The notes under the pieces: model-generated
What the model saw: the letters and a program-made list of their open reading frames with translations, nothing else
Told to the model about the DNA's origin: nothing
Database searches by the model: none
Translations under genes and position numbers: made by a program
Part shown: positions 1,166-24,522 of the stretch, one piece after another
How the letters are laid out: the number at the start of each line of letters is the position of its first letter
Position numbering within the stretch: position 1 is the stretch's first letter
Source of the DNA: an uncultured Verrucomicrobiae bacterium
GTDB taxonomy: Bacteria > Verrucomicrobiota > Verrucomicrobiia > Limisphaerales > UBA11358
NCBI GenBank assembly: GCA_963764175.1
Contig: CAVXRE010000015.1
Coordinates: 9,461 to 73,460 of the forward strand
DNA: 64,000 nucleotides
Direction: 5' to 3'

Positions 1166-1181
1166 CTGGCGGACGAAGACG

Positions 1182-1928: not shown

Positions 1929-3013
1929 GTGCCGGAGTTCTCCTTCCGAAAGGGAATGACCAACCTTACCAGCAATCCGCCTCCCGGCGCGTCGCGCAAT
2001 TCGAAGCCATGGGCCTCGCCGTGGAGCGTTCGCAGGCGCGCCCGCGTGTTTGACAAACCAACCCTTTCTTCGGACGGCACATCTTTCCGGAGGCCGGCGC
2101 CGTTGTCGCACACCTCCAGCACCAGCGTGCCCGCCTCGCGTTTTGCCCGCAACTCGACGCGGCCGGGTTTGGCGTGAGGTTCGATGCCGTGACGGATCGC
2201 ATTTTCCACGAGCGGCTGCAAAATCAGGTTGGGCACCCGGGCATCGAGGGTGTCCGGAGCGATGTCCGTCTTGACGGACAACCGGCTGCCAAACCGGGTC
2301 TGCTCGATTTTCAGATAACGCTGGAGGAATTCCAGCTCCTGGCGCAAAGTCACCTCCTGCGTATCGGAACTGTCCAGGGCAGTCCTCAAAAGGTCGCTCA
2401 ACTGGGTGATCATCCCATCCGCCGCCTCGATGTCCTGATGCATGAGCGAGGAAATGGAGTGCAATGTGTTGAAGAGAAAATGCGGATTCAACTGCATCTG
2501 GAGCGCCTGCAGTTTCGCCTGGGCCAGTTGCTTCTCCAGTTCCATTGTTCGCAATTCGCGCTCCCGGTATTTCCGGTAATAGTCGAACGCAAAGCTGACC
2601 GCGACAATGACCCAGTAGATGAGGAGGTTGAAATGCCAGGTTTTTACGAGCAGCGGCTGGAAGGCCTCAACAAAACTCGCCTCACTCTGCCAGCGCCCCA
2701 CCCAGGCCCGCAGAATCATGTAGCCCAGCGAAAACACCAAACTGGCGGGCAGATGCACGGCAAGGCTCCGCGCACGGTTTCCGGACTCAAAATCAAACCG
2801 GCGCGCCAGCCAGACGACCGGGATGGACAGCACCGCGAACACGTACCAGTCGCCCAGCGCGTAGCTGACGGCCTGTTTCCAGGTCACCTCCAATCCCGCC
2901 TTCGCGCTGGAAATGTAAAACTGAAACGCGAAGGACAACCCGATCAGCGTCCAAAAAACAAACCAAAGCAGCCATTTGATCCAGCGACTTTGCAAGACGT
3001 TCTTGATTGTCAT
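1925..3013 (-). CDS. LytS/YehU-family sensor histidine kinase
   Basis: About 4 N-terminal TM helices, LQMQLNPHFLFNTL H-box, LQPLVENAIRHG, DNGAG, GLSNTRARL. Confidence 0.95.
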   Translation of the reverse strand: MTIKNVLQSRWIKWLLWFVFWTLIGLSFAFQFYISSAKAGLEVTWKQAVSYALGDWYVFAVLSIPVVWLARRFDFESGNRARSLAVHLPASLVFSLGYMILRAWVGRWQSEASFVEAFQPLLVKTWHFNLLIYWVIVAVSFAFDYYRKYRERELRTMELEKQLAQAKLQALQMQLNPHFLFNTLHSISSLMHQDIEAADGMITQLSDLLRTALDSSDTQEVTLRQELEFLQRYLKIEQTRFGSRLSVKTDIAPDTLDARVPNLILQPLVENAIRHGIEPHAKPGRVELRAKREAGTLVLEVCDNGAGLRKDVPSEERVGLSNTRARLRTLHGEAHGFELRDAPGGGLLVRLVIPFRKENSGT

Positions 3014-3060
3014 GTTGCCTGATGTTCCGGTTGCTGGTAAAAGCTATAACCGATTTCAAG

Positions 3061-4851
3061 ATGCCAAACAAATCCTCTCTTTTCAAAGACCGGGAAACCC
3101 GCACCTCCAGTGCGTGTTACAACAAAAGGACGGAAGGTTGGGGCCAACGCGGGCGCAAATTGTTCGCGGCACTGTGCCTGGCCGCAGGCGCGTCCATGCT
3201 CATGGCTTCGGATGAAATTCCCGTGGCAAAATTCACCGACATCACCAAGGAAGCCGGCATCACCTTCGTTCACAACAACGGCGCTTACGGCGATAAATTG
3301 CTGCCGGAAACATTGGGCGGCGGCGTGGCGTTTTTCGATTACGACAACGAAGGCCGCCAGGATCTGCTCTTCATCAATTCGACCTACTGGCCTGGGCACA
3401 TTCCCGAAGGCAAACAGCCAACGACAATGGCGCTCTATCACAACGACGGACACGGCCACTTTACGGACGTCACCAAAGGTTCCGGTCTCGACGTAAGCTT
3501 CTACGGCATGGGCGTGGCCATCGGGGATTATGACAATGACGGACTGCCCGATGTTTTCATCACTGCCGTTGGCGGCAATCACCTGTTTCACAACGACGGA
3601 CACGGCAAATTTCACGAGGTGACCAAGGAAGCGGGCGTCGGTGGTCCGACGAACGGCTGGAGCACAGGCGCGGCTTTTATTGATTACGACAATGACGGCA
3701 AACTTGATCTCTTTGTCTGCAATTACGTGCAATGGTCGCCGGAAATTGACCGGGCAAAAAGTTACGTGCTGCCCAACATCGGGCGTGCCTACGGCCCGCC
3801 CCGCAACTTCGCGGGCACATTTCCGTATCTGTACCACAACGACGGCAACGGCCATTTCACCGACGTCTCGGCGCAGGCCGGCATCCAGATCAAGGATCCC
3901 GCCACCGGATTGCCAATGGCCAAATCGCTTGCCGTGGCACCGGTGGACGTGGACAACGACGGCTGGATTGACCTGGTGGTCGCCAACGACACCGTGCCGA
4001 ATTTTTTGTTCCACAACCAGCACGATGGCACCTTCAAGGAAATCGGCGCGGGCTCGGGCGTCGCCTACGACGCGTACGGGTTGGTCCGGGGCGCGATGGG
4101 CATTGACTCCGCCCGGTTCCGCAACGGAACGCTGGGCATCGCCATTGGGAATTACGCCAACGAGATGAACGCGCTCTATGTCGCCCGGCGCGATTCACTC
4201 CTGTTTGCCGACGAAGCCACCCAGTCCGGGGTCGGCCCGGCCAGCCAGAAGCTCTTGAAATTTGGCCTCTTTTTCTTTGATTACGACCTTGATGGCCGGC
4301 TTGATCTGCTCACCGCCAACGGCCATCTCGAACCCGAAATCAATCGCGTCGAATCCAACCAGCAATACCGCCAGCCCGCGCAATTGTTCTGGAACCGTGG
4401 CGACAGCAAAGGCACGGGCTTCGTGCCCGTTCCACCGGACAAGGCCGGCACCGACCTTTTCAAACCCCTCGTGGGACGCGGCGCGGCCTTTGCCGACATT
4501 AATGGAAACGGCAATCTGGACGTGGTACTCACGCAAATCGGCGGCCCGCCGCTGCTGCTGCGCAACGACCAGAACCTGCATCACCACTGGATCCGCCTGA
4601 AACTTGTCGGCACCAAAAGCAACCGCGACGCCATCGGCGCCTGGATCAAGGTGCGGGTGAACGGCCAGATACTTTGGCGGCAGGTCATGCCCACACGCGG
4701 TTACCTTTCCCAATCCGAACTGCCCGTCACCATCGGCCTGGGAGATGCGCCCGGGCCCGATTCAGTTGAAATCCACTGGCCCAGCGGGATTCGTCAAGAG
4801 GTGGAAAATGTTCAGGTGGACCGCCCGATGACCGTGACGGAAACCCCGTAG
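3061..4851 (+). CDS. CRTAC1-family FG-GAP repeat / ASPIC-UnbV domain protein
   Basis: Multiple DYDNDG Ca-binding repeats; C-terminal LKLVGTKSNRDAIGA..GYLSQSE..GLG..IHWPSG (ASPIC/UnbV). Start uncertain (3007-3197). Confidence 0.9.
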   Translation: MPNKSSLFKDRETRTSSACYNKRTEGWGQRGRKLFAALCLAAGASMLMASDEIPVAKFTDITKEAGITFVHNNGAYGDKLLPETLGGGVAFFDYDNEGRQDLLFINSTYWPGHIPEGKQPTTMALYHNDGHGHFTDVTKGSGLDVSFYGMGVAIGDYDNDGLPDVFITAVGGNHLFHNDGHGKFHEVTKEAGVGGPTNGWSTGAAFIDYDNDGKLDLFVCNYVQWSPEIDRAKSYVLPNIGRAYGPPRNFAGTFPYLYHNDGNGHFTDVSAQAGIQIKDPATGLPMAKSLAVAPVDVDNDGWIDLVVANDTVPNFLFHNQHDGTFKEIGAGSGVAYDAYGLVRGAMGIDSARFRNGTLGIAIGNYANEMNALYVARRDSLLFADEATQSGVGPASQKLLKFGLFFFDYDLDGRLDLLTANGHLEPEINRVESNQQYRQPAQLFWNRGDSKGTGFVPVPPDKAGTDLFKPLVGRGAAFADINGNGNLDVVLTQIGGPPLLLRNDQNLHHHWIRLKLVGTKSNRDAIGAWIKVRVNGQILWRQVMPTRGYLSQSELPVTIGLGDAPGPDSVEIHWPSGIRQEVENVQVDRPMTVTETP

Positions 4852-4863
4852 CGTTTCGATAAG

Positions 4864-5328
4864 CTACTCGGTCTGCGCATCGTAAGGGCGGATTTCCGAA
4901 TGCCGGATTTGGCCGCCGAGATGGGCCGTCCATGTCACCAGACTGCCGACCACCAACGCGCCGGCAAGCAACAGCACGCTGAACCAGCCGGCGACGGCCC
5001 GGCCCCGGAACAGAATCAATCCCGCCAGCGCCGCAATTCCGAGCACGATGCAACCTGCCAGCGTCACTCCCGCAGCCGCCTGATGTTGTTCGAGGATGTG
5101 GTCCGAGAAGCCTGGCAAACCTTTAACCACGCCTGCGGCTGTTCCGCCGGTCAGATATAACGGCACGGCCAGGATTGCGGCCAGGACGAACATGGCCAGC
5201 GCCGCCTTCTGGATGTCATGGCTCGCGCGCCAAACCCCGTAAGCCAGCCAGCCCAATCCAAACAGGATGGCCAGAACTGGAACGTGGCACAGAACCAGAT
5301 GAATATGCGCGGCAGTGACCGGATTCAT
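4864..5328 (-). CDS. 4-TM membrane protein, DUF2231-like (possible heme b binding)
   Basis: HIHLVLCHVP, LEQHQAAA and TAHLGGQIRHSEIR motifs with hydrophobic helices. Confidence 0.6.
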   Translation of the reverse strand: MNPVTAAHIHLVLCHVPVLAILFGLGWLAYGVWRASHDIQKAALAMFVLAAILAVPLYLTGGTAAGVVKGLPGFSDHILEQHQAAAGVTLAGCIVLGIAALAGLILFRGRAVAGWFSVLLLAGALVVGSLVTWTAHLGGQIRHSEIRPYDAQTE

Positions 5329-5398
5329 GTTTTCAGCAGGATTGCACTTCAGGGCCGTTGATGGAATTCATTTTTTGGTTGAGGGATGTTTTCCGCCG

Positions 5399-5995
5399 TT
5401 AAAACTCCAGCGGCACGCGCACGACCAGGCCGCCCATCACATCACCAGTTTTGAAATCCTTCTTTGGACTGGCCGGGTTCCGGTTGTGGCAGTCGGCGCA
5501 GGCATTGACGGTGGCCACCTCGGCATAGACGGCGGTGAAATATCGGCGGCCCCCGAGTGATTCACGGCCGTAATAATTCAGGCCGGGATGATCGAGAACG
5601 AATTGGAGGCCGGCTTTTTCCGTGTCGGTTTCGGGGGCATTCTTCGGATTGATTGGCCAGAGCGAACGCAGGACGTAATGAAATTCCGCTCCCTGTTGCT
5701 GGACGGATTCAGATGCCTGGCGCAGCATCCGGGCATGGAGCATCATGAGATTTTCGTCCTGCCCCGGCGCGCCCGCCGGCGGGTAATTTTGCAGGACCAG
5801 CCGGGCATAAGTTTCGTGGTCGGCGGCAATCACGGCATGGAGGGCGTCCGCCATTTCCTGCGGTTTGAACGTCACCGCCGATTCCGGCGGCACGGCCGGT
5901 CCGGCAGGTTGCCGCTCGCAACCGGTCCCGGCCAAGACCATCAGTCCGGCCAGAATGAAATTGGAAAGGTTCGTGCGCAGCTTGATTGGGTTCAT
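5399..5995 (-). CDS. DUF3365 / Tll0287-like c-type heme lipoprotein
   Basis: Lipobox-like LAGTGC; motifs SLWPINPKNAP.T..EK.GL, CADCHN (CxxCH) and GDVMGGLVVRVPL. Confidence 0.85.
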   Translation of the reverse strand: MNPIKLRTNLSNFILAGLMVLAGTGCERQPAGPAVPPESAVTFKPQEMADALHAVIAADHETYARLVLQNYPPAGAPGQDENLMMLHARMLRQASESVQQQGAEFHYVLRSLWPINPKNAPETDTEKAGLQFVLDHPGLNYYGRESLGGRRYFTAVYAEVATVNACADCHNRNPASPKKDFKTGDVMGGLVVRVPLEF

Positions 5996-6007
5996 AACGG
6001 GCCTCGG

Positions 6008-7114
6008 CTATTTGTTCACCTGGATCGCGGCGGGAACGAACTGTCCGCCATGGGCTTCGAGCAATTGAAGATTTACCTTCCGGTTGCCCTGGGGGTCAAA
6101 GGTCAAAATTCCGGACGCGCCGGCCAGTGAAAAAGCGAGGGGAAAAGCCTCGTGCGCCGGGCGGTCGCCGGATTGTTTCAGTATGTGGATCAACAACGCG
6201 GCTGCGTCATAAGCCGCCGTCGCCGTCGCATCCGGTTCGTGGCCAAACCGCGCCCGAAAAGCGTCGTTGAAATGTTGAAAGGCGGTTGCGGCATCCTTTT
6301 CCAAAATGGGGGCGGGAACGATGAATCCGTCCATGGCGCCGCCCGCCGCCGCTGCAAAATCCGCTGAGCGCAACCGCCCTGGCCCGGCCAGCGTGCCGTC
6401 AAATCCGGCCGCCCGCAGCGATTTCGCCAGCGTCCCGGCCGTGGCCGGATCCAGCCACAGCAAAATGGCGTCGGGATGAGTTTTAAGAATTTGTCTGCCG
6501 AGCCGCGCCACGTTCGTGAGCGACCGGTTTACTTCCAGGGTTTTCTCAACCGAGCATCCACAAGCCAGCGCGGCTTCGTTGAGGTCACGGGCCGCTTCGC
6601 GTCCGGCGCGTCCGTCGGGAATCACGGCCACCCAATGCCCGGCATGAATGCCCGTAAACAATGTTTTGGCTTCGTCAACGGTGCACGGGACGATGCGCAC
6701 CATCCAGGGGACGCCCGTCTGGCTGACCGAGAAGTCGGCGCACAGGGAAACCACCGGCACAGCGGTGCGGCCGGAGACCTGCAATTCCAGGTGCGATGCC
6801 GCGCCGTCCGGCGGTGCAATCAAACCCAATGCACCGTCGTCGGTAACCATCCGGGCGGCCTCGACGCCATCCGCGCCCCACTGGCCGGTGCGGCCGCGAA
6901 TGACCAGGCTTACACGCGGGCCGGGGGATTGATTGGCCAGTTCCATGCCGAGGGTTGCGCCGTCGCGGAGGCTGGCGGCGGCGGGTTCCTCCGGCGGCAC
7001 GAGCAGGCCGATGACGAGGTTGGTGTTGTCGGCGGACGTTTCATCCGCCCGCAGGCACGCCACACCCGAAATCAGGGCAAGGGCGACCACAGCAAGGCGC
7101 GCGTAAAAAAACAT
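6008..7114 (-). CDS. Periplasmic binding protein type I (LivJ / Peripla_BP_6-like)
   Basis: Signal peptide; IGLLVP..GATLGMELAN, AYDAAALL and GASGILTFDPQGNR. Confidence 0.85.
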   Translation of the reverse strand: MFFYARLAVVALALISGVACLRADETSADNTNLVIGLLVPPEEPAAASLRDGATLGMELANQSPGPRVSLVIRGRTGQWGADGVEAARMVTDDGALGLIAPPDGAASHLELQVSGRTAVPVVSLCADFSVSQTGVPWMVRIVPCTVDEAKTLFTGIHAGHWVAVIPDGRAGREAARDLNEAALACGCSVEKTLEVNRSLTNVARLGRQILKTHPDAILLWLDPATAGTLAKSLRAAGFDGTLAGPGRLRSADFAAAAGGAMDGFIVPAPILEKDAATAFQHFNDAFRARFGHEPDATATAAYDAAALLIHILKQSGDRPAHEAFPLAFSLAGASGILTFDPQGNRKVNLQLLEAHGGQFVPAAIQVNK

Positions 7115-7117
7115 GGA

Positions 7118-8503
7118 TTATTTTTCGGCAGTTTGAGGGAGCTTCGATTTCGGCGCCGGGAAGTAATGCCAGCGGCCTTGCAGGCATTGCGCGTAAACAA
7201 TGGGTGCGATGTTGTCCGAGCGACCGTCGAAGCGCATGTAACCGCACACCCCGTTGTATTCGTTGATGGCTCTCATCTGCTCTTGAATCCGGTAGCGGTT
7301 CGGTCCGGCTTTCTTGATCGCGGCGATGAGCATTTGTGCGCCGTCGTAGGCGTAACCGGCGTAGATGTCCGGCTTCAGGCCGTAACGTTTTTGAAAACAC
7401 GCGACGAAATCGGTCCACGCCGGGTCGGTTTTTTCCGGGTCAAAAAAGTAGGCCGCCGTCGCGCCTTCCGCCGCCGGACCGGCGAGCTTGACGAAGTCCG
7501 GGTCCACGAGCCGGTCAAAGCCATAGAAGGCGGCTTTCAGGCCCGCCGCCCGCAGTTGTACCGCCGCCGCTGCGGTCTCGGCGGGATTCCCCCAGAAGAC
7601 CACGGCGTCCGGATCCGCCTGTTTGATGACGGCGACCTGGGTATCGAACGTGCGGTCGCCTTCCTTGAAATTGATTTCCTGCAACACGGGATGGCCAAGC
7701 CGGCGCACGGCATCCACAAACGGCCGGACACCCATGCGACCCGGACGGCTGTTACCGCGGAACACGACGATTTTGGTCAGGCCGCGTTCCTCGACCATCA
7801 ACCGGGCGAGGAGATAACCCTGCTGACGGTTGTCAGGAAAATCGCGCAACAGCCAGGGAATTTGCGTCTCGGTCAGCGACGGATCGGGATCGGAACAGTT
7901 GACCATGAACGTCTCGGTCTTCAAGACCACCCGCAGCGCGACGTGCGTGGCGTCGCCGTCCACCGTGCCGATGAACGCCAGCACGTTGTTGTCGGCAAAT
8001 TCGACGGCAATGTTCGCCGCGCTGCCCCACTGCGGCGAGTCGGCTTTTTCCATGACCTCGAACGGCAGTTCACCGGGCTGGCGCGCGGCGTTGGCTTCTT
8101 CGATGGCCAGCAGCACGCCTTTCCTGCTCATTTCACCGCGCACGGCTTCCGGGCCGTAGGGCGGGGGGCTGAGCAGGCCGATTTTGAGCGATTTCAAGCC
8201 GGGCGGATCGGGATAATCGCTGCCGGGCCCGCGGAACGGCAGCCGGGTGAGCCAGTAACGGTAGGAGGGTTCGATGTTGCGGTAGGGCAGCATTTCCTCC
8301 GGCACGTTTCCATAGAAGGGATAATCGCCCCCATAAAAAGGATAGCCGCCCTCCGATTTTTGCGCGGGCGGCGTGCCCGGCGGCAGGACCGGCTCGGCAA
8401 TGAAGTTGGTGCTGGGGGTGGTGTCCTCCTTTTCCTCGTAACCGCACCAACCGGCTGGCACAAGGGTCAGCAGGCCGGTCATTATCAGAAACAATTTTTT
8501 CAT
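7118..8503 (-). CDS. Periplasmic binding protein type I (LivJ-like) with N-terminal extension
   Basis: Start ATG 8503 (MKKLFLIMTG) after an AGGAGG RBS; KIGLLSP, LAIEEANA, YAYDGAQML and GVCGYMRFD. Confidence 0.85.
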   Translation of the reverse strand: MKKLFLIMTGLLTLVPAGWCGYEEKEDTTPSTNFIAEPVLPPGTPPAQKSEGGYPFYGGDYPFYGNVPEEMLPYRNIEPSYRYWLTRLPFRGPGSDYPDPPGLKSLKIGLLSPPPYGPEAVRGEMSRKGVLLAIEEANAARQPGELPFEVMEKADSPQWGSAANIAVEFADNNVLAFIGTVDGDATHVALRVVLKTETFMVNCSDPDPSLTETQIPWLLRDFPDNRQQGYLLARLMVEERGLTKIVVFRGNSRPGRMGVRPFVDAVRRLGHPVLQEINFKEGDRTFDTQVAVIKQADPDAVVFWGNPAETAAAAVQLRAAGLKAAFYGFDRLVDPDFVKLAGPAAEGATAAYFFDPEKTDPAWTDFVACFQKRYGLKPDIYAGYAYDGAQMLIAAIKKAGPNRYRIQEQMRAINEYNGVCGYMRFDGRSDNIAPIVYAQCLQGRWHYFPAPKSKLPQTAEK

Positions 8504-8510
8504 GGGCCTC

Positions 8511-9092
8511 CTATTTGACCAGGATGGCAATGGCTTCAATTTCGACGAGCAAATCGCTCCGGCAAAGCCGGGCCTGGATGCCGGTGCTGGCCGGGAATGG
8601 GTCCAGACCCAGGGCGTGGAAAAATTCGTTGCGGATGGAATTGAATTCGCCGTAGTCGCGCTCGATGTCGCGGATGTAACAGGTGGTCCGGACCATGTCG
8701 TGCCAGGTGGCGCCCTCACTGGCGAGCAGGCCGGTGAGGTTGTAATAGGTGCGCCAGAGTTGGGCGCGGAAATCGCCGGGGTAGAGCGTCTCGCCGTCCG
8801 GCCCGATGCTGGCGGTGCCGCTGAAGAGCAGTTGGGTGATGCCGCCGGGCAGGTCCACGCGCAGGCCGCGCACGAAGGCCGCGCCGTAATCGGACGCTTC
8901 GTTCAAGACCTTCGTTTCGGTGATGGCCTTCTTGCCGACCACCTTCCGGCCTTTCGGCAGTTGTTTGATGAGGCCGCCGGGGGCGGGTTCGCACGCCGGC
9001 AGGCCGAGTGCGCGGCGCGCGATTTTTTCCGCGTCGGAATAGTTGATCAGGCGATCCGCCTGGCTGCCGGGGATGATGACGTTTGATTTCAT
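8511..9092 (-). CDS. Rid (YjgF/YER057c/UK114) family protein, FkbO/Hyg5 chorismatase-like subgroup
   Basis: F.RG..LLFSGTASI..GD..AQL..T..N..LL..PASTGIQARLCRSDLLVEIEAIA. No signal peptide. Confidence 0.8.
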   Translation of the reverse strand: MKSNVIIPGSQADRLINYSDAEKIARRALGLPACEPAPGGLIKQLPKGRKVVGKKAITETKVLNEASDYGAAFVRGLRVDLPGGITQLLFSGTASIGPDGETLYPGDFRAQLWRTYYNLTGLLASEGATWHDMVRTTCYIRDIERDYGEFNSIRNEFFHALGLDPFPASTGIQARLCRSDLLVEIEAIAILVK

Positions 9093-9117
9093 AATATGTG
9101 ACCTTTCTAAATTCGGG

Positions 9118-10260
9118 TTATTTCATGTCCGCAACTTTGGTGGATTTCTGTGGCGCGGCAAAAATTGCATGCGACAGTCCGTCGGAGGTGGCGAACCAAG
9201 CTTCCTGGTCGTCGGCCCAGATGCCGAGGACGAAATTGTTCGGAAGGTGGGTGGGCATCGTTCGGGTCTCGACGGGCTGGCCGGGACGCGCGATTTCAAC
9301 GATGCCTGCGCCATTTTCGTCGTTTCGATAATTGACCCAGGTATCGCCGTCGGTGACGGCAATGCCGCGGTCGGTGCCCACCCAGGCGACGTGGCCGCGG
9401 GGCCAGATGAAGTTGACAAAGTTGGAAGGGAGCGGTGATTTTTTCTCCTGCCACGTGCGCCAGCGCGAGCCGTCGTAGCGCGACATGCCAAAATAGGTTC
9501 CCTGCCAAAGGATGCCATCCTCCCAGGCAATCCAGGAAGTGATATCGGCAACCGGGCCGGCATCATGCATGAGTTCAAAGTGAAAATCGCGGTCCGGATC
9601 GCGGTATTCCTTGAAAATCCCGCTGACCGGATTGTACTCGAGAATGCCGCCGCCCCAGACACCCACGAAGACCCGGTCCTTCGCGCCTTTCACCGCATAG
9701 ACCCACGGTTCGTGCATGACGGTGTTGTTCTGGTCGTAAATGCTCCAGGAACCGGTCTTGAGATCCAACGCCCCCAGGCCTGCGGCGGTGGCCACCCAGA
9801 GCGTGTCATCCATGATGTCCAAGCCATAAACGACGTTGTTCGGCAGGCCGCTGTCGGTCTGGGTGTAGGTGGTTATGCGGCCGGCGCTGTAGCGGTTCAA
9901 CCCGCGCATGGTGCCGATCCACATGTCGCCGGTGCGCTTGTCCTCCACCATACACATCACCATCCGGTGACTAAGGCCCTCGTTTGTGCCGATGAGGCGG
10001 AACTTTCCGTCCTCGAGCACCAAGGCGCCGCCGTAGGTGCCCACCCAGAGTTTGCCGTCGCTGGCGCGCAACACGCAGTGGACCTTGTGCGTGGGCATTC
10101 CGTCCTTCATTTGGAAGTTTTCAAACCGGTCAATCAATGGGAATGGCAGGGGCGGGTTGTTCGTCGTGGTATCCGCGGCGCGGACGCCAGGTGCGCCGGC
10201 GAAGGAAAGCAGCAGCGCGATTCCCGCCAGGAGCGTCGGAAAATTTAACTTGGGGTTCAT
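9118..10260 (-). CDS. Stand-alone 'two-component regulator propeller' (Reg_prop) beta-propeller, secreted
   Basis: Signal peptide; repeated LWVGT.GG, GL(S/P).N.V and WIGT.RGL blades; no kinase domain. Confidence 0.8.
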   Translation of the reverse strand: MNPKLNFPTLLAGIALLLSFAGAPGVRAADTTTNNPPLPFPLIDRFENFQMKDGMPTHKVHCVLRASDGKLWVGTYGGALVLEDGKFRLIGTNEGLSHRMVMCMVEDKRTGDMWIGTMRGLNRYSAGRITTYTQTDSGLPNNVVYGLDIMDDTLWVATAAGLGALDLKTGSWSIYDQNNTVMHEPWVYAVKGAKDRVFVGVWGGGILEYNPVSGIFKEYRDPDRDFHFELMHDAGPVADITSWIAWEDGILWQGTYFGMSRYDGSRWRTWQEKKSPLPSNFVNFIWPRGHVAWVGTDRGIAVTDGDTWVNYRNDENGAGIVEIARPGQPVETRTMPTHLPNNFVLGIWADDQEAWFATSDGLSHAIFAAPQKSTKVADMK

Positions 10261-10270
10261 GGTTTTCGGT

Positions 10271-12223
10271 TCAGAGGATTTTCAAGTATTCAACCAGGTC
10301 GTTGAGCTGGATTTTATTCATGTAACTGGTTACGCCGTGCGTATCGTTGGTGCTGTAGAGCGTCCAGATTTCCTCGAGGGACTGCGCGCGGCCGTCATGG
10401 AGATACGGCGCGGTGTCGGCGACGCCCAGCAGATGCGGGGTGTCAAACATTCCCCCGGTGCCGACGTCAAACGACAGCCGCACCGAGTACAGCGGCGGGC
10501 GATGGCAGGTCGCGCACCGGCGTTCGTGCGGGATCTCCTTGCCGGTCGTGGTCATGGTGGCAAAGAAGATGGCCTTGCCGCGTTCCTGCGACGGCGTCAG
10601 TTTTCCGTCCGCGCTGAGGCCCATGACGCGCTGAGGCGGAAGCGACTTGATGAACGTCGTCAGGTCCGACAATTCCTTCGGGGGAATCGGGTCGGTACGC
10701 ATCAGCACCTTGGCGAAGCGCGGGCCGCATTGCACTTCGAGGCTCGGATTTTTCCCGTTCCACTTGAACGGTTCGGTGCCGGCCACGCCCATCAGGCTGC
10801 GGTTGTCGAGCAGGTTGTCGCCAATGCCGGTCGTGTCAAAATCGTAACTCAGGCCGTCCACATGCCCGTCGGGGTGGCAGGAGCGGCAGGAGAATTGATG
10901 CTGGAAGGTGTAAGCCGCCCGGGTGAAAACCCGCTCGCCGCGCCGGATGGGATCGTTCAGTCCGCCGTCGCCCAGCACAATCCGGCCCTGCACCGCCAGG
11001 CTTTTCGCGTCCACCACGAGGATGCTGTCCTGCAACCGTTCGGCGACAAACAAAGTGCCGCCGTCCGGGCTGAGCGTCAGTTGCTTCGGATTGCGCTCGG
11101 TGGGAATGCGGGCGGTGACGTATTCAGGCGAGAGTGACATGTCATAAATCGCCTCCTGTCTGGCCGTGGAGTCCGCTTTTTCCAGCCATCCGGCCAAACG
11201 GTCCAAATCCACGACGGTGACCACATCGCCGCCGCCGGAGGCGACAAAGGCGCGCTGGCCGGCCGGGTCCACCGCAATGCCGGACGGATCGGCAAAATAA
11301 TTGTTGGCCTCGTCGAGCGGCATCTGGATGACATCGCCGGTTTTGGTGTCGGTGACCGCCAGACCGCTCGACATCACCCAGCCATTGGCGACCTGCGTGA
11401 TGGGGACGAGATTGCGCACCTTGACCAGCGGCGTCAGCATCCACGACCGCGTTGGCACGGCGCAGATGGCTTCGGAAAGGTGTGCTGAATCGAGCGCTTC
11501 GCGGCGCACCGTGCGTGCGGTCATGGGATTGATCTCGGTGATTTCCGACGCGGGAATGGTTTTGACCGAGACCAGCCGGACCATGCGATTGGCGACGAAG
11601 GCGCGGGTTCCATCCGGCGCAACCGCCACGGCAAACGGCTCACGACCCGCCGATGGCCGGCCCAATTCCCGCAACGGCGAGACGGAGAGGACGGAAATGT
11701 CGTCGGACATGGAATTGGCCACCACCAAGCGGTCGCCGGCCGCAGTGCGGCAAAAGGCCACGGCCACCGGTGCCATGCCCACGGCGATTGAGCCGGTTTC
11801 CTGAAGCGTTTGCGTGTCCAGCACCGCCAGCCGGTCGCCGGCCCGGCAGGTGACGAAGAGATTTTTCCCGGCCGTGTCCAGGGCCAGTCCAAACGGCCGG
11901 CCAGGCACCGTGACCCGGCGCAGGACCTGCCGCGTGGCGGTGTCCGCCTCGGCCACTTGGTCGCGGTCATCCAGGGCGATGTAAATGTTGCGGCCATCCG
12001 GTGAAACCACCAGGCCGGCCGGTGCGTCGTGATGCGGGCGGGGCTGGGCCCAGCGCAACCGTGACGTGGAAACGAGGTGACAATTGTAGCAGGTGACGCT
12101 GGTGAGGTTTTTCTGGCCGGACATCTCGCGCATGTGGTCAATCCAGTAGTATTGCCTGAGCCAGAGCGCGACACCGGCGAGGCCCGCCACGACTAGCACG
12201 ATGATGATGAGGCGCTTTTTCAT
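10271..12223 (-). CDS. Membrane-anchored tri-heme protein: CxxCH + YVTN beta-propeller + di-heme CcP/MauG-like domain (HzsB-HzsC fusion-like)
   Basis: N-terminal TM helix; CYNCH (12077-12091); YVTN blades (VANSMSDDISV, SPDGGTLFVA); CRSCH (10874-10888); CATCH (10502-10516); FDTPHL..APYLHDG; HGVTS..DLVEYLKIL. Confidence 0.8.
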   Translation of the reverse strand: MKKRLIIIVLVVAGLAGVALWLRQYYWIDHMREMSGQKNLTSVTCYNCHLVSTSRLRWAQPRPHHDAPAGLVVSPDGRNIYIALDDRDQVAEADTATRQVLRRVTVPGRPFGLALDTAGKNLFVTCRAGDRLAVLDTQTLQETGSIAVGMAPVAVAFCRTAAGDRLVVANSMSDDISVLSVSPLRELGRPSAGREPFAVAVAPDGTRAFVANRMVRLVSVKTIPASEITEINPMTARTVRREALDSAHLSEAICAVPTRSWMLTPLVKVRNLVPITQVANGWVMSSGLAVTDTKTGDVIQMPLDEANNYFADPSGIAVDPAGQRAFVASGGGDVVTVVDLDRLAGWLEKADSTARQEAIYDMSLSPEYVTARIPTERNPKQLTLSPDGGTLFVAERLQDSILVVDAKSLAVQGRIVLGDGGLNDPIRRGERVFTRAAYTFQHQFSCRSCHPDGHVDGLSYDFDTTGIGDNLLDNRSLMGVAGTEPFKWNGKNPSLEVQCGPRFAKVLMRTDPIPPKELSDLTTFIKSLPPQRVMGLSADGKLTPSQERGKAIFFATMTTTGKEIPHERRCATCHRPPLYSVRLSFDVGTGGMFDTPHLLGVADTAPYLHDGRAQSLEEIWTLYSTNDTHGVTSYMNKIQLNDLVEYLKIL

Positions 12224-13683
12224 CAGTTGGATTTGGTTTGGGCCGTCCCGGTATTTTTCAGTGCCACCGATGTTATCGGCACACTCACGGCCAGGGGACG
12301 ATGGTTGTGCGGCGCATGGTTGCGCGGTTCGTGACAGCCGATGCAGGCGCGGTTTTCAGCCGGCCGCACCCAGAACATCGGCGCTTCGTACCGCAGTACC
12401 CGACCGTTTTCATCGAGTGTTTCGAAACCGAGCGGGACATCAGCCGGCACTTCTGCCAGAAACGAACCATCGGTTTGAACCGGCACCTCGCCGAGCGAGC
12501 TGACCTTCCCCGGCGACGTTTCCGCGAGCATACGAATATGGGTGGCCACGGGCATTGCTCCGGCCACGGGGTCGCTGGAAAAATTCGCGTTCAGGCAGAG
12601 GATTTTTCCGGTTGATTTTGTTGGGTCCATGCCCGAAATCCGGCCCATGGGACTTGGGCGTGAGGCCAATTCGACCGCTTCACAATCATTCCACGCGGGA
12701 TCCGCCAGGAGCGGCGTGTCCAATGTGGTCGCGGTCGAACCCACCCGGAACAGCGCGAGTGAAGTTCCAGCACCCGGTGGGTTTTCAGCGCACACCAGCA
12801 AATCGCCATTGCCGGCAGGTTGCACCGAGCTGACCCGGCCGGTGACACCGGGAAACAGCGGTGTGCGGCCCTGAAATGGCCGGGCCAGGCGTACCAATTC
12901 CGGCACGCCGCCCGGTAAGACGGAACCGGACTTTGAGACCAGAAAGACGATGCGGCCATCGTTGAGCAACCGGGGCTGCTGGATGACGGAGTCGGGAGAT
13001 TCCGGGCTGGCGAAGGCGGTGATTTCCGTGCCGTCGTTGTTGATCGTAAACAGGGCCGGGCCGGAGGTGGAGTTGACCGATTCCGGCGATGGGGTTGAGA
13101 CAAACAGGATTCTTCCGTCGCCCAACATCGTTGGCTCGGTGATGCCGCGGGAGCTGAAGGTCAACAGGTGCGGCGGGCTGCCGGCTGGTTGAACATAAAG
13201 CGCGGACGGTGGCTGGCCGGGATTGATTCCGCCGCTTTTGGGCACTGGCGAGGCGAACACCAGGCTTCCGTTCGGAAGCAACGCCGGACTCATGGCACCA
13301 CCGGGAATCGAGGTCAACTGCTGAAGCCGGCCATCCGCCAAATCCTCCTGATAAATCTGCCACTCCGCGGTGGAACTCGTTTTGCCCGCAAAAAAAACGC
13401 GCCGGCCATCGTAGGAAACCACCGGATCACCGGCAGCGGTCAAACCTTCGGAAAGCACCTGAACACGGCCGGAACCCAACGGCGCTTCGATTAGTACGAC
13501 GCGGCTGCCAGGCGGATAACGCAAATCCAAAATATCAGAGGCCGGAGTCACGGCGGCGTTGACCGGCGATTGCGTGAGGATCAGCGCGCCGACGGGCGGC
13601 ATGGGTTTGCGGCAGCCGGCGCCCGCCAGCAAAACGAGGCCGGCGGCAAGCATGGAAATTTTAAAATGGCTGGCGGGGTTCAC
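12223..13683 (-). CDS. Hydrazine synthase alpha (HzsA)-like lipoprotein: TolB-like propeller + HZS_alpha middle domain with one CxxCH
   Basis: Probable GTG start at 13683 with LAGAGC lipobox. DPVVSYDGRRVFFAG..WQIY and LFTINNDGT propeller motifs; LGEVPVQTDGSFLAEVPADVPLGFETLDENG..WVRPAENRACIGCHE. TGATG overlap with the next gene. Confidence 0.85.
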   Translation of the reverse strand: MNPASHFKISMLAAGLVLLAGAGCRKPMPPVGALILTQSPVNAAVTPASDILDLRYPPGSRVVLIEAPLGSGRVQVLSEGLTAAGDPVVSYDGRRVFFAGKTSSTAEWQIYQEDLADGRLQQLTSIPGGAMSPALLPNGSLVFASPVPKSGGINPGQPPSALYVQPAGSPPHLLTFSSRGITEPTMLGDGRILFVSTPSPESVNSTSGPALFTINNDGTEITAFASPESPDSVIQQPRLLNDGRIVFLVSKSGSVLPGGVPELVRLARPFQGRTPLFPGVTGRVSSVQPAGNGDLLVCAENPPGAGTSLALFRVGSTATTLDTPLLADPAWNDCEAVELASRPSPMGRISGMDPTKSTGKILCLNANFSSDPVAGAMPVATHIRMLAETSPGKVSSLGEVPVQTDGSFLAEVPADVPLGFETLDENGRVLRYEAPMFWVRPAENRACIGCHEPRNHAPHNHRPLAVSVPITSVALKNTGTAQTKSN

Positions 13684-13685
13684 GT

Positions 13686-15410
13686 TTATTGCCGTTCGCC
13701 GGGTTCGCGGACCTTGAGGATTTGATCCACCTTGACGTTGGTCAGTTCCTGAACCTGTTTGCTCGGCCACAGGATTTCGATGCGATCCACGTTGGTCGCC
13801 TGGCCCAGACCGAAGTGTGGCCGACGGTCGCTTTGCATGAGGAAGCCCGACGCGCAGCGCGCTTCGGCAAAATAGGTTTTGCCGCCGGCGGTGACCTTCA
13901 CTTTTGCGCCGAAGCCGTCACGGTTGCTCTTCGTGCCTTCGAGATCGAGCGTAATCCAGTGGTTGCCGGATTTGTCCCGGTTGCGGAGCAGGAAAGGCCG
14001 GTTGCCAATCGTGGTGACGATGATGTCCATGTGGCCATCATTGTTGTAATCCGCCACGGCGCTGCCACGGGCGTTGATTTTGGTTTTGAAATATGCGCCG
14101 CCCCTGGCCGCCGCGTCCGTGAAAGTGCCGTCGCCCCGGTTTTCCAGCAGCAAACTTTCCCAGCCGACAAGGTAATGCGGATCGCCGTTGGCAATAAAGA
14201 TGTCGAGCTTGCCGCTGTTGTCGTAGTCCAGAAAGCAACCGCCCCAGCCGACAAATTGCGCGGTCAGTGAACCGAGACCCGACGCCATCATGCGGTCGTC
14301 AAAAATCCCGTTGGTCGTGCCCATATAAAGCGAGCCGTAGCCCAGCCGGGTGACGAGAATGTCTTCGATGCCGTCGTTGTTGCAGTCGCCGATGGTGGCG
14401 GCCATGGAACCGGCGGCCTCGCCCATCGCGTTGAAGGCCACGCCGGCCTGCAGCGCCCTGTCCTGGAAATGGCCCTTGCCGTCGTTCACCAGCAGCAGGT
14501 TCGGCGTGCCGTCATCCGAAATGTAAAGGTCCGGCGCGCCATCGTTGTTGTAGTCGAACATGGCCACGGACATCGCCCGGTGCCCGGGAATTTCGATGCC
14601 GGAAGATTTGCTGACGTCCTCGAACGTGCCGTCGCCGCGATTGTGATACAGCTTGTTGAATTGCGGTTTATAGGAAAGCGGGCCGGGATAGGCGTCGGGG
14701 TTGTAGTAAAGCTGATAGCTGGGATCGAAGGTGAGGTAGTTCGCGACAAAGAGGTCGAGTTTGCCGTCATTGTCCGCGTCGAAAAAGACCGCGCCGATGC
14801 CCGTGCCGCCGATATTCCCAACACCGGCCTTTTCCGTGACATCTTCGAACGTGCCGTCACCGCGATTGTGGAAAAGATAGGAACGTCCCACGCCGACGAC
14901 ATAAAGGTCGGTGTGGCCGTCGTTGTCATAATCGCCGGCGACGGCGGCGGTGCAATAGCCGAGGCCGCCCAACCCGGCCTTTTCCGTGACGTCCTCGAAC
15001 GTTCCATCGCCGCGATTGCGGTAAAGCCGCGGCCCCACGCGGGCCGTGCCGGGCGCATGATGCGTGACGCCATCGAGCGGGCCGGAGTTCACCAGGAACA
15101 AATCCATATATCCGTCGCCGTCGTAGTCCAGCCAGCACCCGCCCGCGCCGTTGGACTCGATAATGTTCGCAATTTTTGTGTCGCAGAACTGGTTGACGAA
15201 TTGAATGCCGGCCTGGATGGTGACATCCTCGAACAAATCATCCGGCCCGGCGGGAATCGGCGGAATGACTGCCAGCGCTGGAATCGGCAAGGGTGTCGAG
15301 CCGGCGGCACGGCCGGTGAGATGTCGATTGACCGCAACGGCAACCAGTGCCAGGGCCAGGCAGGCGGCACCGAGGGCGGCGATTTTGCAGAAGAAACATT
15401 TGTTGTTCAT
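13686..15410 (-). CDS. CRTAC1-family FG-GAP / ASPIC-UnbV protein, first gene of the operon
   Basis: ATG 15410; signal/anchor; DYDGDG and DYDNDG repeats; LEGTKSNRDGFGAKV..HFGLG..WPS. Confidence 0.9.
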   Translation of the reverse strand: MNNKCFFCKIAALGAACLALALVAVAVNRHLTGRAAGSTPLPIPALAVIPPIPAGPDDLFEDVTIQAGIQFVNQFCDTKIANIIESNGAGGCWLDYDGDGYMDLFLVNSGPLDGVTHHAPGTARVGPRLYRNRGDGTFEDVTEKAGLGGLGYCTAAVAGDYDNDGHTDLYVVGVGRSYLFHNRGDGTFEDVTEKAGVGNIGGTGIGAVFFDADNDGKLDLFVANYLTFDPSYQLYYNPDAYPGPLSYKPQFNKLYHNRGDGTFEDVSKSSGIEIPGHRAMSVAMFDYNNDGAPDLYISDDGTPNLLLVNDGKGHFQDRALQAGVAFNAMGEAAGSMAATIGDCNNDGIEDILVTRLGYGSLYMGTTNGIFDDRMMASGLGSLTAQFVGWGGCFLDYDNSGKLDIFIANGDPHYLVGWESLLLENRGDGTFTDAAARGGAYFKTKINARGSAVADYNNDGHMDIIVTTIGNRPFLLRNRDKSGNHWITLDLEGTKSNRDGFGAKVKVTAGGKTYFAEARCASGFLMQSDRRPHFGLGQATNVDRIEILWPSKQVQELTNVKVDQILKVREPGERQ

Positions 15411-15510
15411 AAGAAAATGCCGGATGCCGGCGTGAAGCAATGACCGGTGCCGGGCCGTTTGACGATGGAGCACAGCTTGATGGCCGGCACCGAGTCTTGT
15501 GAAATCAGCT

Positions 15511-15539
15511 TATGATAATAATAAGTAATTATTCTCATA
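15511..15539. promoter_or_regulatory. AT-rich imperfect palindrome, Fur-box-like
   Basis: TATGATAATAAT-AAGTA-ATTATTCTCATA: 12-bp arms with 1 mismatch, containing the GATAAT hexamer. Confidence 0.35.
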
Positions 15540-15585
15540 CTGTGTAATTAACTTTTACAATACATTCTTGTGCGGCCAAATTGTT

Positions 15586-15619
15586 CTGGGACATCCGGTC
15601 CGCTTTTGGGGACAAACGG
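15586..15619 (-). promoter_or_regulatory. LytTR/AlgR-type direct-repeat site upstream of the hzs-like operon
   Basis: GGGACA at 15588 and 15609 (21-bp period). Minus strand reads CCGTTTGTCCC and CCGGATGTCCC; same core, spacing and orientation as the site at 1132-1165. Confidence 0.6.
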
Positions 15620-15803
15620 AGCCAAAGCCGGGTTTTTTGATGTATCGGCCGCAACCAGCAACGGAAACGTCACGGGATTGGGCCCTTTGGCGGATCCTCC
15701 AGTTTGCGCTTTTCCTCCGGCCGGTTTCACGGTTAAGTAGGCGTGAATCACTCATCACGGTGTAAAACCATGAACCGTGGGAGCGAATGAACCTGTTCGG
15801 CCT

Positions 15804-18800
15804 ATGTCAAAGCGTTTGATTTTAATCATCTTGGGTCTCGCCCTTGCGGGACTGGGCATCTTTTTGTTGCGGCCGGCTGGAGAGGGAGATGGCTTCACCC
15901 GTTTGATGTCGCGCGGCAACGGTTATCTGGAGAAAGGCGACGCCACCAATGCCATCGCCACCTACCTGCAAGTGGTGAAACTGGCGCCGGACAATCTCGA
16001 CGCGCGATTGAATCTGGCCAACGCCTACCTGCTGGCTGATGACAGTTCAAACGTGGTTGAACAGTGCCGCCAAGCCATCAATCTGGATCAGAACAGCGCG
16101 GCGGCTTATTACTTGATGGGCTGCGCTTATTTGCGGTCGAACCAGGCCGAACCGGCCGTTCAGGCGTTCCAGCAATCCGGGCAAATTGACAATGCGGTGA
16201 CCGCGCTGCATTTCCAGTTGGGCCTGGCCCAGACGCGTTTGGGGCGCCTCGACGACGCCATCAGCGAATTTGAAACTGTACTGCGGTTTGAACCGGAGCA
16301 TCCGTCCGTCCACTATCAACTCAGCCTGCTTTACGGGCGTGTCGGACGCCCGGAGGATGCCGCGCGGGAAATGCAGAAGCACCAGGAAATCCTGGCCAAA
16401 AATCCCGGCGGCGCAAGTGGTCCGGCCACCTTCGAGCGCTGCAAATACACGCAGCCGCAGATTGCATTCAAACTCGAAGAACCCGACCGGCGCGGTGTTC
16501 CGGTGCATTTCACGGATGCCACTTCCACCGCCTTCAGCCAGCCGTCAGATTTTCACGGGCCGATGGGCGTGCTGGATTACAACCACGACGGACGCAACAG
16601 CCTGTTTGTGACGGAAGGCGAAAAAGGATTCCGCGTCTTGGACAATCAAAACGGACATTTCAAACCGCTGGGCGAAATTTTGCCGGGCAAGCCGGGTGCA
16701 AATTATCGCCGCTGCCTGGTGGGCGACGTCAACAATGACCGCTTTGACGACGTGATTGTGCTGGGTGAGCAGGCGTCTCACGCATTCAAATTCGCGACCA
16801 ACGGCCAGTGCCGTGAGGTGACCGCGTTTGCCGGACTGAAAAATTTGAAGGCAAGCGACGGCCTGCTGGCCGATCTCGATTTCACCGGCAAACTCGATTT
16901 GCTGGCGGTTGCGCCGGATGGCAGCGGGCTGTCCGTCTATCAGAACCTTGGAAGTTTCTACTTTCAGGACAATACGGAGGCATCAGGCCTGCCTGCGGCG
17001 TTTGCAGGCGTGGAGCATGTTGCCGTGGATGATTGGAACAACGAAGACGTGCCGGGTGTTTTTGTCACCCGCACCGGCAAGCCGCCCGTTTTCTTTCCAA
17101 AACAACGCGCGGGTTCGTTCTTGTTGACCAATTCACCGGCGGATTGGCCGGTCGGCAACGTCATCGCCACCGGCGATCTCAATAATGATTTGCGAGACGA
17201 CCTCGTCGTGGCCGGTGACAGTGAAATTACCATCATTTATGGCGGCATGACGGAACGGGTGACCCTGCCGTTGCACGGATTGCAGGTGAAAGGAATCTTG
17301 CTCGTGGATTATGACAACGACGGGTGGCTGGATGTGATTGCTTACGGCAACGGCGTGCGAGCCTGGCGCAATCTGGGCCGGGCCGGTTTCGCTGATGTCA
17401 CCGCCGGGCTTGGTCTCGATAAAATCGGCCCCGTGGATGAATTGGTGGCGGCGGATTTTACCGGCGACGGCGCCACTGACCTGATCGCCAGCACACCCAA
17501 CGGCCTGCGATTTTTGAGAAATGACGGCGGCAACGCTAACCGTCAACTGAAGCTGCGGCTGGCGGGCAATCGTTCCAACGCCAGCGCGTTCGGTGTGCGC
17601 GTCGAACTGACGGCCGGCAACTGGCGGACGATCCGCACACTGCAACAACTGCCCCTGGAAATCGGGGTCGGCAAACACGACAAGATAGACGCTCTCAAAA
17701 CGCGCTGGTTCGACCTCTCCAGCACGCTGGTGGACGTGGCGGTTCCCACCAATCAATTGACGCTCGACGAGCTGACCCTCCCCACCGGCTCGTGCCCGTA
17801 TCTTTATGCCTGGGACGGCCAGCGATTCAAATTTGTGACCGACATTCTCGGCGCTTCACCACTGGGATTGCCGGTCAGCAAGAAGCGCTACATCGAATCC
17901 GATCCGGAGGAATTTCTGGCATTGGGAGACGAACAACAATTTCCGGCGAAAAACGGCGCGTACGAAGTCAGAATCACCGAGGAACTCCGCGAGGTGCTTT
18001 ATCTCGACGAAGCCCGGTTGGTGGTGGTGGATCATCCAGCCGGAACACTGGTTTGCCCGACGAGCAAATTGCGTCCCGGCAAACCATTCCCGCCTCACGA
18101 ACTCTGGACTTTGCGCCCGGTGGCTCCCCTCAAACAAGCCATCCGCAGCGACGGTCTGGATGTGACCGAGGCATTGGCGAAGACGGATGGCAGGATGGTT
18201 TCGCCGGTGCGCTTGCGCGAGCCGCAATTGCGCGGGCTGGCCGAACCGTTTTCCGTCACGATGGATTTTGGCGAATTGCCGGTTGACCGCCCGCTCGTCC
18301 TCGTCCTCAACGGATGGCTGCGCTTCGGCGGCGGCATGGCAAATGTGGCGGCCTCGCTGGACCCAAACCTGCCATTTCCGTTTCCGACGCTCGAAGCGGA
18401 GATGCCGGATGGTTCGTGGAAGAAAATTGACACCGACGTTGGCGCGCCTGCGGGCAAGACCAAGACCATCCTCGTTGACCTGGACAAAAAGCTTCCGCCG
18501 GGCGCGCGCTGGCTCCGGCTGACGACGGCATTCGAGATTTATTGGGACTCCGCCAGCCTGTGCGAGAAGGTTTTGGCTGATCAGAATCACCAAATCACTT
18601 TGGCTCCCGGTCACACGGATTTGCACTGGCGGGGATTCAGCGAGTTTGCTCCCCTGCCCTCCTCGCAGCCGCTCACGCCGGTTTACGACCGGCCTCGCTC
18701 CGAGCCGCCCTGGCGGCGCACGCCGTCCGGCTGGTGCACGCGGTATGGTCCGGTGGACGAACTGCTCCAAAAAAGCGACGACGCGCTGGTGTTGATGAAT

Positions 18801-19079: not shown

Positions 19080-19088
19080 TTTCATGAC

Positions 19089-19113
19089 TTTGCCGTGAGA
19101 GAATCACGGCAAA
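19089..19113. terminator. Hairpin between convergent genes (probable bidirectional terminator)
   Basis: TTTGCCGTGA-GAGAA-TCACGGCAAA, a perfect 10-bp stem. Confidence 0.6.
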
Positions 19114-19137
19114 AGCCGACCTCAACGCCCGCATACA

Positions 19138-24508: not shown

Positions 24509-24522
24509 AACCGAGTAATGTT

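Follow-up and report, generated by a model that had tools for sequence, protein, structure and literature searches.

The DNA analysed here, hereafter the window, is a 64,000-nucleotide (nt) stretch of contig CAVXRE010000015.1 (positions 9,461 to 73,460, forward strand) in the assembly GCA_963764175.1 of an uncultured Verrucomicrobiae bacterium; coordinates given without a locus handle are positions in the window. Between 4864 and 15410 it carries nine open reading frames (ORFs), g1 to g9, arranged head to tail on the minus strand, five of which belong to a conserved unit that includes a pair of genes identified by sequence and fold comparison as true homologs of hydrazine synthase (HZS) subunits. 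An earlier note, made from the letters alone, had described nine co-oriented genes with gaps from -1 to about 70 bp, and the ORF calls agree: computed from the ORF coordinates with the likely starts (15410 for g1, 13653 for g2 and 8503 for g6), the gaps from g1 to g9 are 32, -1, 10, 25, 7, 3, 12 and 70 nt.

The first gene, g1 (13686-15410), encodes a CRTAC1-like exported propeller with FG-GAP/VCBS repeats and a C-terminal UnbV_ASPIC domain (Pfam: FG-GAP_3 6e-53, UnbV_ASPIC 6e-21). It is followed by g2 (12223-13653), an HzsA-like lipoprotein with a six-bladed TolB-like propeller and a heme c middle domain, and by g3 (10271-12223), an HzsBC-like protein whose N-terminal membrane anchor and extra CxxCH motif precede a seven-bladed propeller of YVTN type and a di-heme domain resembling HZS gamma and CCP. 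The remaining genes encode an exported protein with a single Reg_prop beta-propeller (g4, 9118-10260; Pfam Reg_prop 3e-12), a cytoplasmic protein of the Rid/YjgF fold (g5, 8511-9092; Ribonuc_L-PSP 2e-16), a LivJ-type binding lipoprotein whose linker is rich in Pro and Tyr (g6, 7118-8503; Peripla_BP_6 2e-42), a second Peripla_BP_6 binding protein (g7, 6008-7114; 2e-27), a Tll0287-like (DUF3365) mono-heme c lipoprotein (g8, 5399-5995) and a four-helix membrane protein with conserved His residues (g9, 4864-5328). Pfam and NCBIfam profile searches bear out the family labels first assigned to g1 to g8, and the five CxxCH motifs announced at the outset are found in the translations (three in g3 and one each in g2 and g8). 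For g1 to g8, export signals were assessed by visual inspection: lipobox-like N-termini are present in g2, g6, g7 and g8, a Sec-type signal in g4 and an N-terminal hydrophobic anchor in g1 and g3. Only g5 has no signal, lipobox or membrane segment, in agreement, together with the four-helix model of g9, with the former statement that all members but the Rid protein are exported or membrane-bound.

The longest ORF of g2 reaches 13770; the 476-residue form of the protein coincides exactly with the database gene call P0001. This protein matches HZS_alpha (3e-16) and NF052339 (3e-20); its best solved relative by sequence is HZS alpha (PDB 5c2v chain A, 4.6e-13), and its AlphaFold model (pLDDT, a predicted confidence score, 79.6) has 5c2v_A as top fold match (E 1.5e-20, TMq 0.69), with TolB next at 1e-10. 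Likewise, g3 matches NF052342 hydrazine_BC (6e-49) and CCP_MauG (4e-8), and its best solved relatives are HZS beta (5c2v_B, 2.4e-34) and HZS gamma (5c2v_C). When the C-terminal domain of g3 is taken alone, HZS gamma (1.6e-16) remains well ahead of the MbnH-like di-heme enzyme (6e1c, 5e-5) and of peroxidase (0.009). The pair first called HZS-like thus proves, on these comparisons, to consist of true homologs of the synthase subunits. The NCBIfam scores nevertheless lie far under the equivalog cut-offs, with 71.8 versus 800 bits for the alpha family and 166.8 versus 1250 bits for the fused beta-gamma family.

In HZS alpha, heme alpha-I is ligated by Tyr591 while the CxxCH His is turned to a zinc ion, and the C-terminal domain holds the bis-His heme alpha-II. 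The g2 chain comprises 476-515 residues, against 782 in 5c2v_A, and ends about 35 residues past its single CxxCH motif, so that the heme alpha-II domain is absent. No Tyr occurs within 35 residues after this motif in g2 or its orthologs (alignment A3); the c heme, its motif lacking the HZS Tyr ligand, is therefore probably canonical. C476, C479 and H480 of g2 are invariant in the same alignment, and the lipobox Cys is present in 17/17 of the sequences that cover this region and can be aligned there, two others starting later and one (L097) having no aligned Cys. In g3, the two C-terminal CxxCH motifs are invariant (alignment A1), and the N-terminal one is found in 17/17 close orthologs, all of which cover that region. 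The corresponding extra heme sits directly after the membrane anchor, at a place occupied by a multiheme domain in the divergent copy of a complete genome of the same class (G264); both the position and this replacement would fit a role as electron entry. The Trp of the g3 motif FKWNG, conserved in 20/20 orthologs (A1), aligns with HZS gamma His144 and falls at the site where CCP and MauG carry their inter-heme Trp. The Cys of the motif QCGPRFA aligns with the HZS-gamma Cys located 59 residues past the heme His; it is kept in 16/20 orthologs and replaced by Asp in four (A1), the covalent link itself being predicted only. In the numbering used in the available text of Hagglund et al. 2025 (PMC12758564), these two sites are Cys165 and His144. 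The pair is thus a distant relative of hydrazine synthase, sharing its ancestral stock, yet it is not a hydrazine synthase.

The earlier note had proposed a synteny search as a check on whether the gene set holds together as a unit, and its core does. Searching 40 relatives of the window genome with g3 (in the neighbour comparison, matches above 60 bits were listed) retrieved a full-length ortholog in 4/40, with 68-86% identity and the same neighbours in all four as far as the contigs extend. One locus (L016) has all nine genes together with the two flanking genes g0 and gU described below, a second (L014) has g1 to g8, and the other two (L015 and L017) are cut after g6. A g3-based scan of a public genome collection yielded 78 loci, mostly in metagenome-assembled genomes (MAGs) of Verrucomicrobiota (labelled Limisphaerales, Pedosphaera or Opitutaceae) and of Acidobacteriota, plus one MAG labelled Limnocylindrales and one labelled Bacteroidetes. 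Synteny was counted in 35 of these 78 loci, picked by DNA length before their neighbours were inspected, by comparing coordinates by hand. Five genes are contiguous in 35/35 genomes, namely those for the CRTAC1-like, HzsA-like, HzsBC-like and Reg_prop proteins and for one LivJ-type binding protein: g2 always adjoins g3, g4 always lies directly downstream of g3, g6 is always present, and g1 lies upstream of g2 in 28 loci and between g2 and g3 in seven loci of Acidobacteriaceae type. The second binding protein, g7, is in the cluster in 27/35, on another contig once and without a match at 1e-30 in seven, so that the proposed inclusion of binding proteins in the system holds in full for g6 and in most genomes for g7. 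The Rid-like gene g5 stands between g4 and g6 in 24/35; it is found elsewhere, beside another HzsA-like gene, in two and has no match at 1e-15 in nine. The last two genes are in the cluster in 16/35 (g8; elsewhere in eight, no match in 11) and 11/35 (g9; elsewhere in eight, no match in 16), and gU occurs within 10 kb of the cluster in 14/35.

An independent anchor, g4 used as query against an evenly drawn set of 400 genomes from the phylum, found only four carriers; a g3-like gene lies directly upstream of g4 in 4/4, and a g2-like gene 2.7-3.4 kb further upstream in 3/4, the contig ending in the fourth. The complete genome G264 carries its divergent copy on one strand in the order CRTAC1, HzsA-like, CRTAC1, HzsBC-like (with the N-terminal multiheme domain), Reg_prop, two binding proteins, glycoside hydrolase-like and TPR-CRTAC1. 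Since the gene order recurs in other genomes, it is far beyond chance, and the five-gene core is a unit, rare and patchy within the phylum. Identity of g3 to the window protein is 71% in the Limnocylindrales-labelled MAG, 61-63% in the Acidobacteriota MAGs and 58-63% in Opitutaceae; these values across phyla would fit either interphylum transfer or wrong binning. In MAGs from peat, soil and lakes the system is common, the alpha-like protein alone forming at least 525 protein clusters at 90% identity. Apparent CRTAC1-HzsA fusions were rejected: the long ORF of L086 results from the g2 frame continuing across g1, and in L099 the two frames are joined by a frameshift, the g3 gene of that MAG being split as well.

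The cluster is also represented in RNA libraries. Five metatranscriptome runs each contain 7-17% of the sampled cluster words (shares 0.07-0.17), and assembled contigs from four runs of two studies match g1 to g8 with 95-100% identity; such contigs show presence, neither strand nor level. Three junctions are bridged, g2/g3 by a contig without differences from a wetland run of the second study (12111-12401), g5/g6 (8414-9092) and g7/g8 (5782-6075). The cluster is thus apparently expressed. Most of g4 and parts of g6 and g9 are without RNA contigs, from which no inference is drawn. Two contigs from two runs of one study (8643-9092 and 8414-9092) share the end point 9092, which is the first base of g5, and g4 has next to no RNA contig from that study; this pattern could reflect an internal 5' end or strain divergence.

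The proteins surrounding the catalytic pair have features of their own. Where solved RidA homologs have the motif PAR, g5 reads PAS, with Ser in 10/10 orthologs; the catalytic Arg of RidA, Arg105 in the E. coli protein, is thus lacking. The Rid assignment therefore stands for the fold and fails for the catalytic residue. Weak matches of g5 to chorismatase families were obtained, and an Atlas search for g5 outside PF01042 found nothing. The binding proteins are of amino-acid or aromatic-acid type, and no permease or ATPase genes were found in the cluster or the immediate flanks of the window, L060, L086 and L100. The match of g8 to the Tll0287-like family is clear (2.5e-17, 64.1 bits versus a cut-off of 24.1, one CxxCH). 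The Tll0287 heme has a Cys axial ligand, which is impossible in g8 because the mature protein has no further Cys. In g9, four His residues are invariant, H10, H15, H82 and H143, as is P17 (ortholog alignment A5). Its model (pLDDT 79) comprises four helices, which gave no match at E 0.001 or better in a Foldseek search of the PDB, where only generic helical bundles were retrieved; a Pfam search likewise gave no match at E up to 10. In its nearest Atlas clusters DUF2231 is found in only 15-25% of members and is a lead only.

CRTAC1-like genes recurrently adjoin c-type cytochrome genes. Of the eight genomes whose Tll0287-like gene is outside the cluster, six (G051 C32, G053 C32, G060 C77, G061 C51, G064 C2 and G065 C3) have it immediately downstream of another CRTAC1 paralog with 59-62% identity to g1, which suggests a CRTAC1/heme c two-gene module; the second cluster on G046 C14 is a further instance. 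On the window's own contig, just before the window, a 986-residue protein that combines TPR repeats with a multiheme region resembling cytochrome c554 (L102:5921-8881, minus strand) is directly followed by a third CRTAC1-like gene (L102:4032-5891, minus strand), and three UnbV_ASPIC proteins of the host genome lie within 20 kb of one another. CRTAC1 is present as a tandem double in L060.

Upstream of the cluster, gU (15777-19079, plus strand), a TPR and FG-GAP protein gene, is divergent from g1. The intergenic region between them is 366 nt long and AT-rich, and a promoter scan placed two promoter-like sites in it. Inside the cluster, the promoter scan gave nothing above chance, the terminator scan gave 22 terminator-like sites versus 15.3 +/- 3.8 in shuffles, none beyond chance, and no Rfam family was found in 4500-16200 at E 0.1 or better. 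On the other side, g0 (3007-4851, plus strand), a second CRTAC1-like gene, is convergent with the cluster; it occupies the equivalent site in one of the two syntenic loci that cover that side (L016, not L014). It adjoins genes for a LytTR regulator and a LytS-type kinase (1182-3013, minus strand). The co-regulated porin suggested by the earlier note finds no counterpart, no porin family being matched among the flanking ORFs tested (71-1189, 19138-20109, 20266-21828 and 22130-22705). G+C content is 0.59-0.65 within 5001-14000 and 0.56-0.59 in most flanking 1-kb bins (1-4000 and 15001-22000), with exceptions of 0.61 at 4001-5000 and 0.62 at 18001-19000. Further along the window are a DUF1549/DUF1553 and DUF1501 gene pair (22835-25872, plus strand), an IS3-family transposase gene (30505-31548) and an ORF of 2476 residues (32569-39999, minus strand).

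Related genes also occur in other arrangements. A second divergent copy of the system, in an 11.4-Mb genome (G046 C14, 615-634 kb), comprises Rid, HzsA-like, CRTAC1, Reg_prop (34%), binding-protein (36%) and Tll0287-like genes and two CRTAC1 genes. The window genome itself has, on its contig 6 (L018), an HzsBC-like paralog of 30% identity (8566-10407, minus strand) without an HzsA-like partner; the adjoining gene (7397-8590, minus strand) encodes a 397-residue protein with a Rid domain and a weak match to a chorismatase N-domain. This pair is in mobile DNA, as a TrwC relaxase gene and IS66 copies lie on its flanks. Other HzsBC-like paralogs (L019:10095-14318, L021:4066-7941, L021:10528-13941, and also in G052 and G054) stand beside genes for very large proteins in which an HZS_alpha domain is joined to Laminin_G, FGE-sulfatase, F5/8 type C or Mal s 1-like domains, with sulfatase and glycoside hydrolase genes near. 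Two large genomes have 14-17 HZS_alpha-like matches each.

Based on homology, synteny and the RNA data, we consider it probable that the product of the cluster is an exported c-type heme enzyme of several proteins, anchored to the membrane or by lipid, which shares its ancestral stock with HZS. We infer one complex of the core proteins, roles for the accessory proteins and a direction of electron flow. The catalytic pair would be g2 and g3, with two heme sites as in HZS: g2 would provide a propeller with one c heme, while g3 would combine, behind its membrane anchor, an entry heme with a propeller and a di-heme module that bears the CCP/MauG-type Trp and usually also the extra Cys. All five core proteins would be assembled as one exported complex, in which the CRTAC1-like protein, the Reg_prop protein and one or two LivJ-type proteins are expected to be obligate or near-obligate partners. 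These partners most likely bind a small organic ligand and present it to the heme sites, rather than feed an ATP-binding cassette (ABC) transporter. Where present, the g8 heme c lipoprotein and the His-rich g9 protein with its four membrane helices may link the enzyme to the membrane. As to the chemistry, our committed guess is that a peroxide- or oxygen-derived oxidant would drive a redox conversion of the ligand in an aerobic soil or peat bacterium; the reasons for proposing an oxidant-driven conversion are the Trp of CCP/MauG type, the aerobic nature of the host and the assignment of the binding proteins to an amino-acid or aromatic-acid type.

Several points weigh against this proposal. 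Binding, cofactors and activity are predicted from homology and synteny, and nothing singles out one oxidant or substrate. Sensors, too, are typically built with binding proteins, Reg_prop or Tll0287-like domains. The cytoplasmic g5 has no obvious place in a periplasmic enzyme, and g8 and g9, the putative electron route, are absent from most clusters; the electron-transfer end of the system envisaged by the earlier note is weakened accordingly. The matching contigs were assembled from RNA libraries in which DNA carry-over is possible, and there is no silent control stretch. Overall, the interpretation given in that note, a periplasmic system of substrate capture, HZS-like catalysis and electron transfer, is partly supported.

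A bolder version of the proposed enzyme, which we regard as unlikely, would be a periplasmic enzyme without precedent, working in aerobic bacteria of soil and peat: the gamma-like heme would make a reactive intermediate that is joined to the substrate, or oxidises it, at the alpha-like heme, with orphan binding proteins and propellers delivering the substrate; this would be a heteroatom coupling or oxidation without known counterpart, and CRTAC1-like propellers would be general redox partners of c-type cytochromes. The chances are slimmer that the system serves maturation in the manner of MauG or MbnH, the di-heme module of g3 modifying a residue in the CRTAC1-like or Reg_prop propeller and so building a cofactor, with the propeller as the real enzyme. 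The CCP/MauG Trp and the weak matches to the MbnH and MauG families would be in line with this, as would the piling up of CRTAC1-like genes (the three UnbV_ASPIC proteins within 20 kb, the tandem in L060) and their pairing with c-type cytochromes elsewhere, but HZS gamma is by far the better match to the same domain, and an invariant HzsA-like heme protein and the binding proteins would be left unexplained.

An HZS-like chemistry of nitrogen oxides, in which the gamma-like heme would reduce NO to hydroxylamine, either for detoxification or for coupling to a delivered amine, appears improbable. The third heme-linking Cys is kept in the window protein and in 16/20 orthologs, and binding proteins of amino-acid-binding type might deliver such an amine; however, g2 has neither the alpha-site Tyr ligand nor the heme alpha-II domain, gamma His144 is Trp and the profile scores fall far short of the equivalog cut-offs. 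Moreover, in the host genome, which is 96.7% complete, no NirK was found and no NirS scored above cut-off. The anammox pathway context comprises an NO-forming nitrite reductase and an octaheme hydrazine dehydrogenase; a search with PF13447 gave no match, but the control genomes were likewise silent for this family. The host genome gives two heme-copper oxidase matches. For its own homologs, the available text of PMC12758564 reaches a likewise negative verdict. Least credible of all is a periplasmic sensing assembly, in which a ligand or redox state would be perceived by the binding proteins, the Reg_prop protein and the Tll0287-like protein and reported to a membrane kinase, for example that of the neighbouring LytS/LytTR pair. 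These three domains are common sensor modules, and the kinase and regulator genes are next to g0; yet transmitter domains are absent from all cluster proteins, the scanned flanks of L060, L086, L099 and L100 did not show the two-component pair (no direct search for it was made), and the centre of the cluster conserves a membrane-anchored protein with three hemes as well as a heme lipoprotein.

For a long time hydrazine synthase was believed to be without relatives. The cluster belongs to a family of HZS homologs recognised only recently and shows its make-up outside anaerobes, with a fixed five-protein set that includes three extra propeller or binding proteins, in a system spread across at least two phyla. 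Identification of the substrate would give a function to the bacterial CRTAC1-like, standalone Reg_prop and HZS_alpha-domain families, and would also show the enzyme type from which hydrazine synthesis evolved. Since a complete genome of the same class (G264) carries a divergent copy, the system may be open to experiment.

Compared with known systems, the cluster shares three blocks with the anammox HZS (5C2V), namely the alpha propeller with its heme middle domain, the seven-bladed beta propeller and the gamma di-heme domain, and the gamma Cys for the third heme link is kept. It differs in lacking the heme alpha-II domain and the Tyr ligand, in having Trp for gamma His144, in the extra N-terminal heme and membrane anchor of its beta-gamma protein, and in the partner genes; among the anammox pathway genes searched for in the host, none was found. 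The anammox HZS cluster is said, in the account of Kartal and Keltjens from 2016, to have an electron-transfer module of heme c proteins and a heme b membrane protein. An equal part would be played here by g8 and g9, one c heme and one His-rich membrane protein at the cluster end; however, no sequence relation is shown, g9 is without family match and its heme is putative, and the pair is absent from most clusters. In the di-heme peroxidase/MauG/MbnH family a Trp likewise lies between two c hemes, and the family is a weak direct sequence match to g3, whereas the di-heme domain of g3 shares its chain with a propeller and a third heme, is paired with an HzsA-like heme protein and has the extra Cys. 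We know of no such Cys in use by enzymes of that family.

On the function of HZS-like genes, our literature search found only two papers, PMC10732223 and PMC12758564. In Phycisphaerae UBA1845, as described in the available text of PMC10732223, a fused beta-gamma-like gene is directly preceded by an alpha-like one, as it is here, and HZS-like enzymes are suggested to be a wider family with other substrates. Phylum and habitat differ, those MAGs having hao, nxr and other anammox-type genes, and CRTAC1 or binding-protein partners are not mentioned in that text. The closest system in print is that of Hagglund et al. 2025 (PMC12758564), whose available text describes side-by-side homologs of HZS alpha and of fused beta-gamma in four clades. 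In clades I-III the alpha gene is upstream of beta-gamma and two substrate-binding protein genes are downstream; a CRTAC1-family gene separates alpha from beta-gamma in clades I and II and precedes alpha in clade III. Clades I-III have a 2-residue gap at the site of alpha Tyr591, and Trp replaces gamma His144; heme alpha-II is absent from clades II and III, and the clade III beta-gamma has one extra heme motif. The homologs are judged in that text not to be hydrazine synthases and no function is proposed. Thus, the claim that the cluster has no recognisable pathway stands in so far as no function is in print, while its core arrangement had already been described.

The window has the clade III order of CRTAC1, alpha, beta-gamma and two binding proteins, with Reg_prop and Rid in between; its beta-gamma has exactly one extra heme motif, its alpha lacks heme alpha-II as well as the last ~100 residues, and Trp stands at gamma His144. 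With all named features present, the window matches clade III, by features and not by the published tree; on the same footing, the Acidobacteriaceae-type loci would fit clade II and G264 clade I. A difference lies in the hosts, stressed as anaerobic in that paper, whereas the window host has heme-copper oxidases. The main text of PMC12758564 does not contain Rid, Verrucomicrobiota or Acidobacteriota and uses 'propeller' for HZS subunits only, though its figures or supplements may name such genes; Tll0287 and the 4-TM gene, for which no term search was made, go unmentioned in its available text. The core gene set has thus been in print since 2025, and the present analysis adds to it. Apparently new relative to the available text are the invariant Reg_prop protein, the Arg-less Rid-like protein, the optional heme c/4-TM pair, the pairing of CRTAC1-like proteins with c-type cytochromes and the heme-copper oxidases of the host, to which can be added the binding proteins without adjoining transporter genes, the position of the extra g3 heme and the four invariant His residues of g9.

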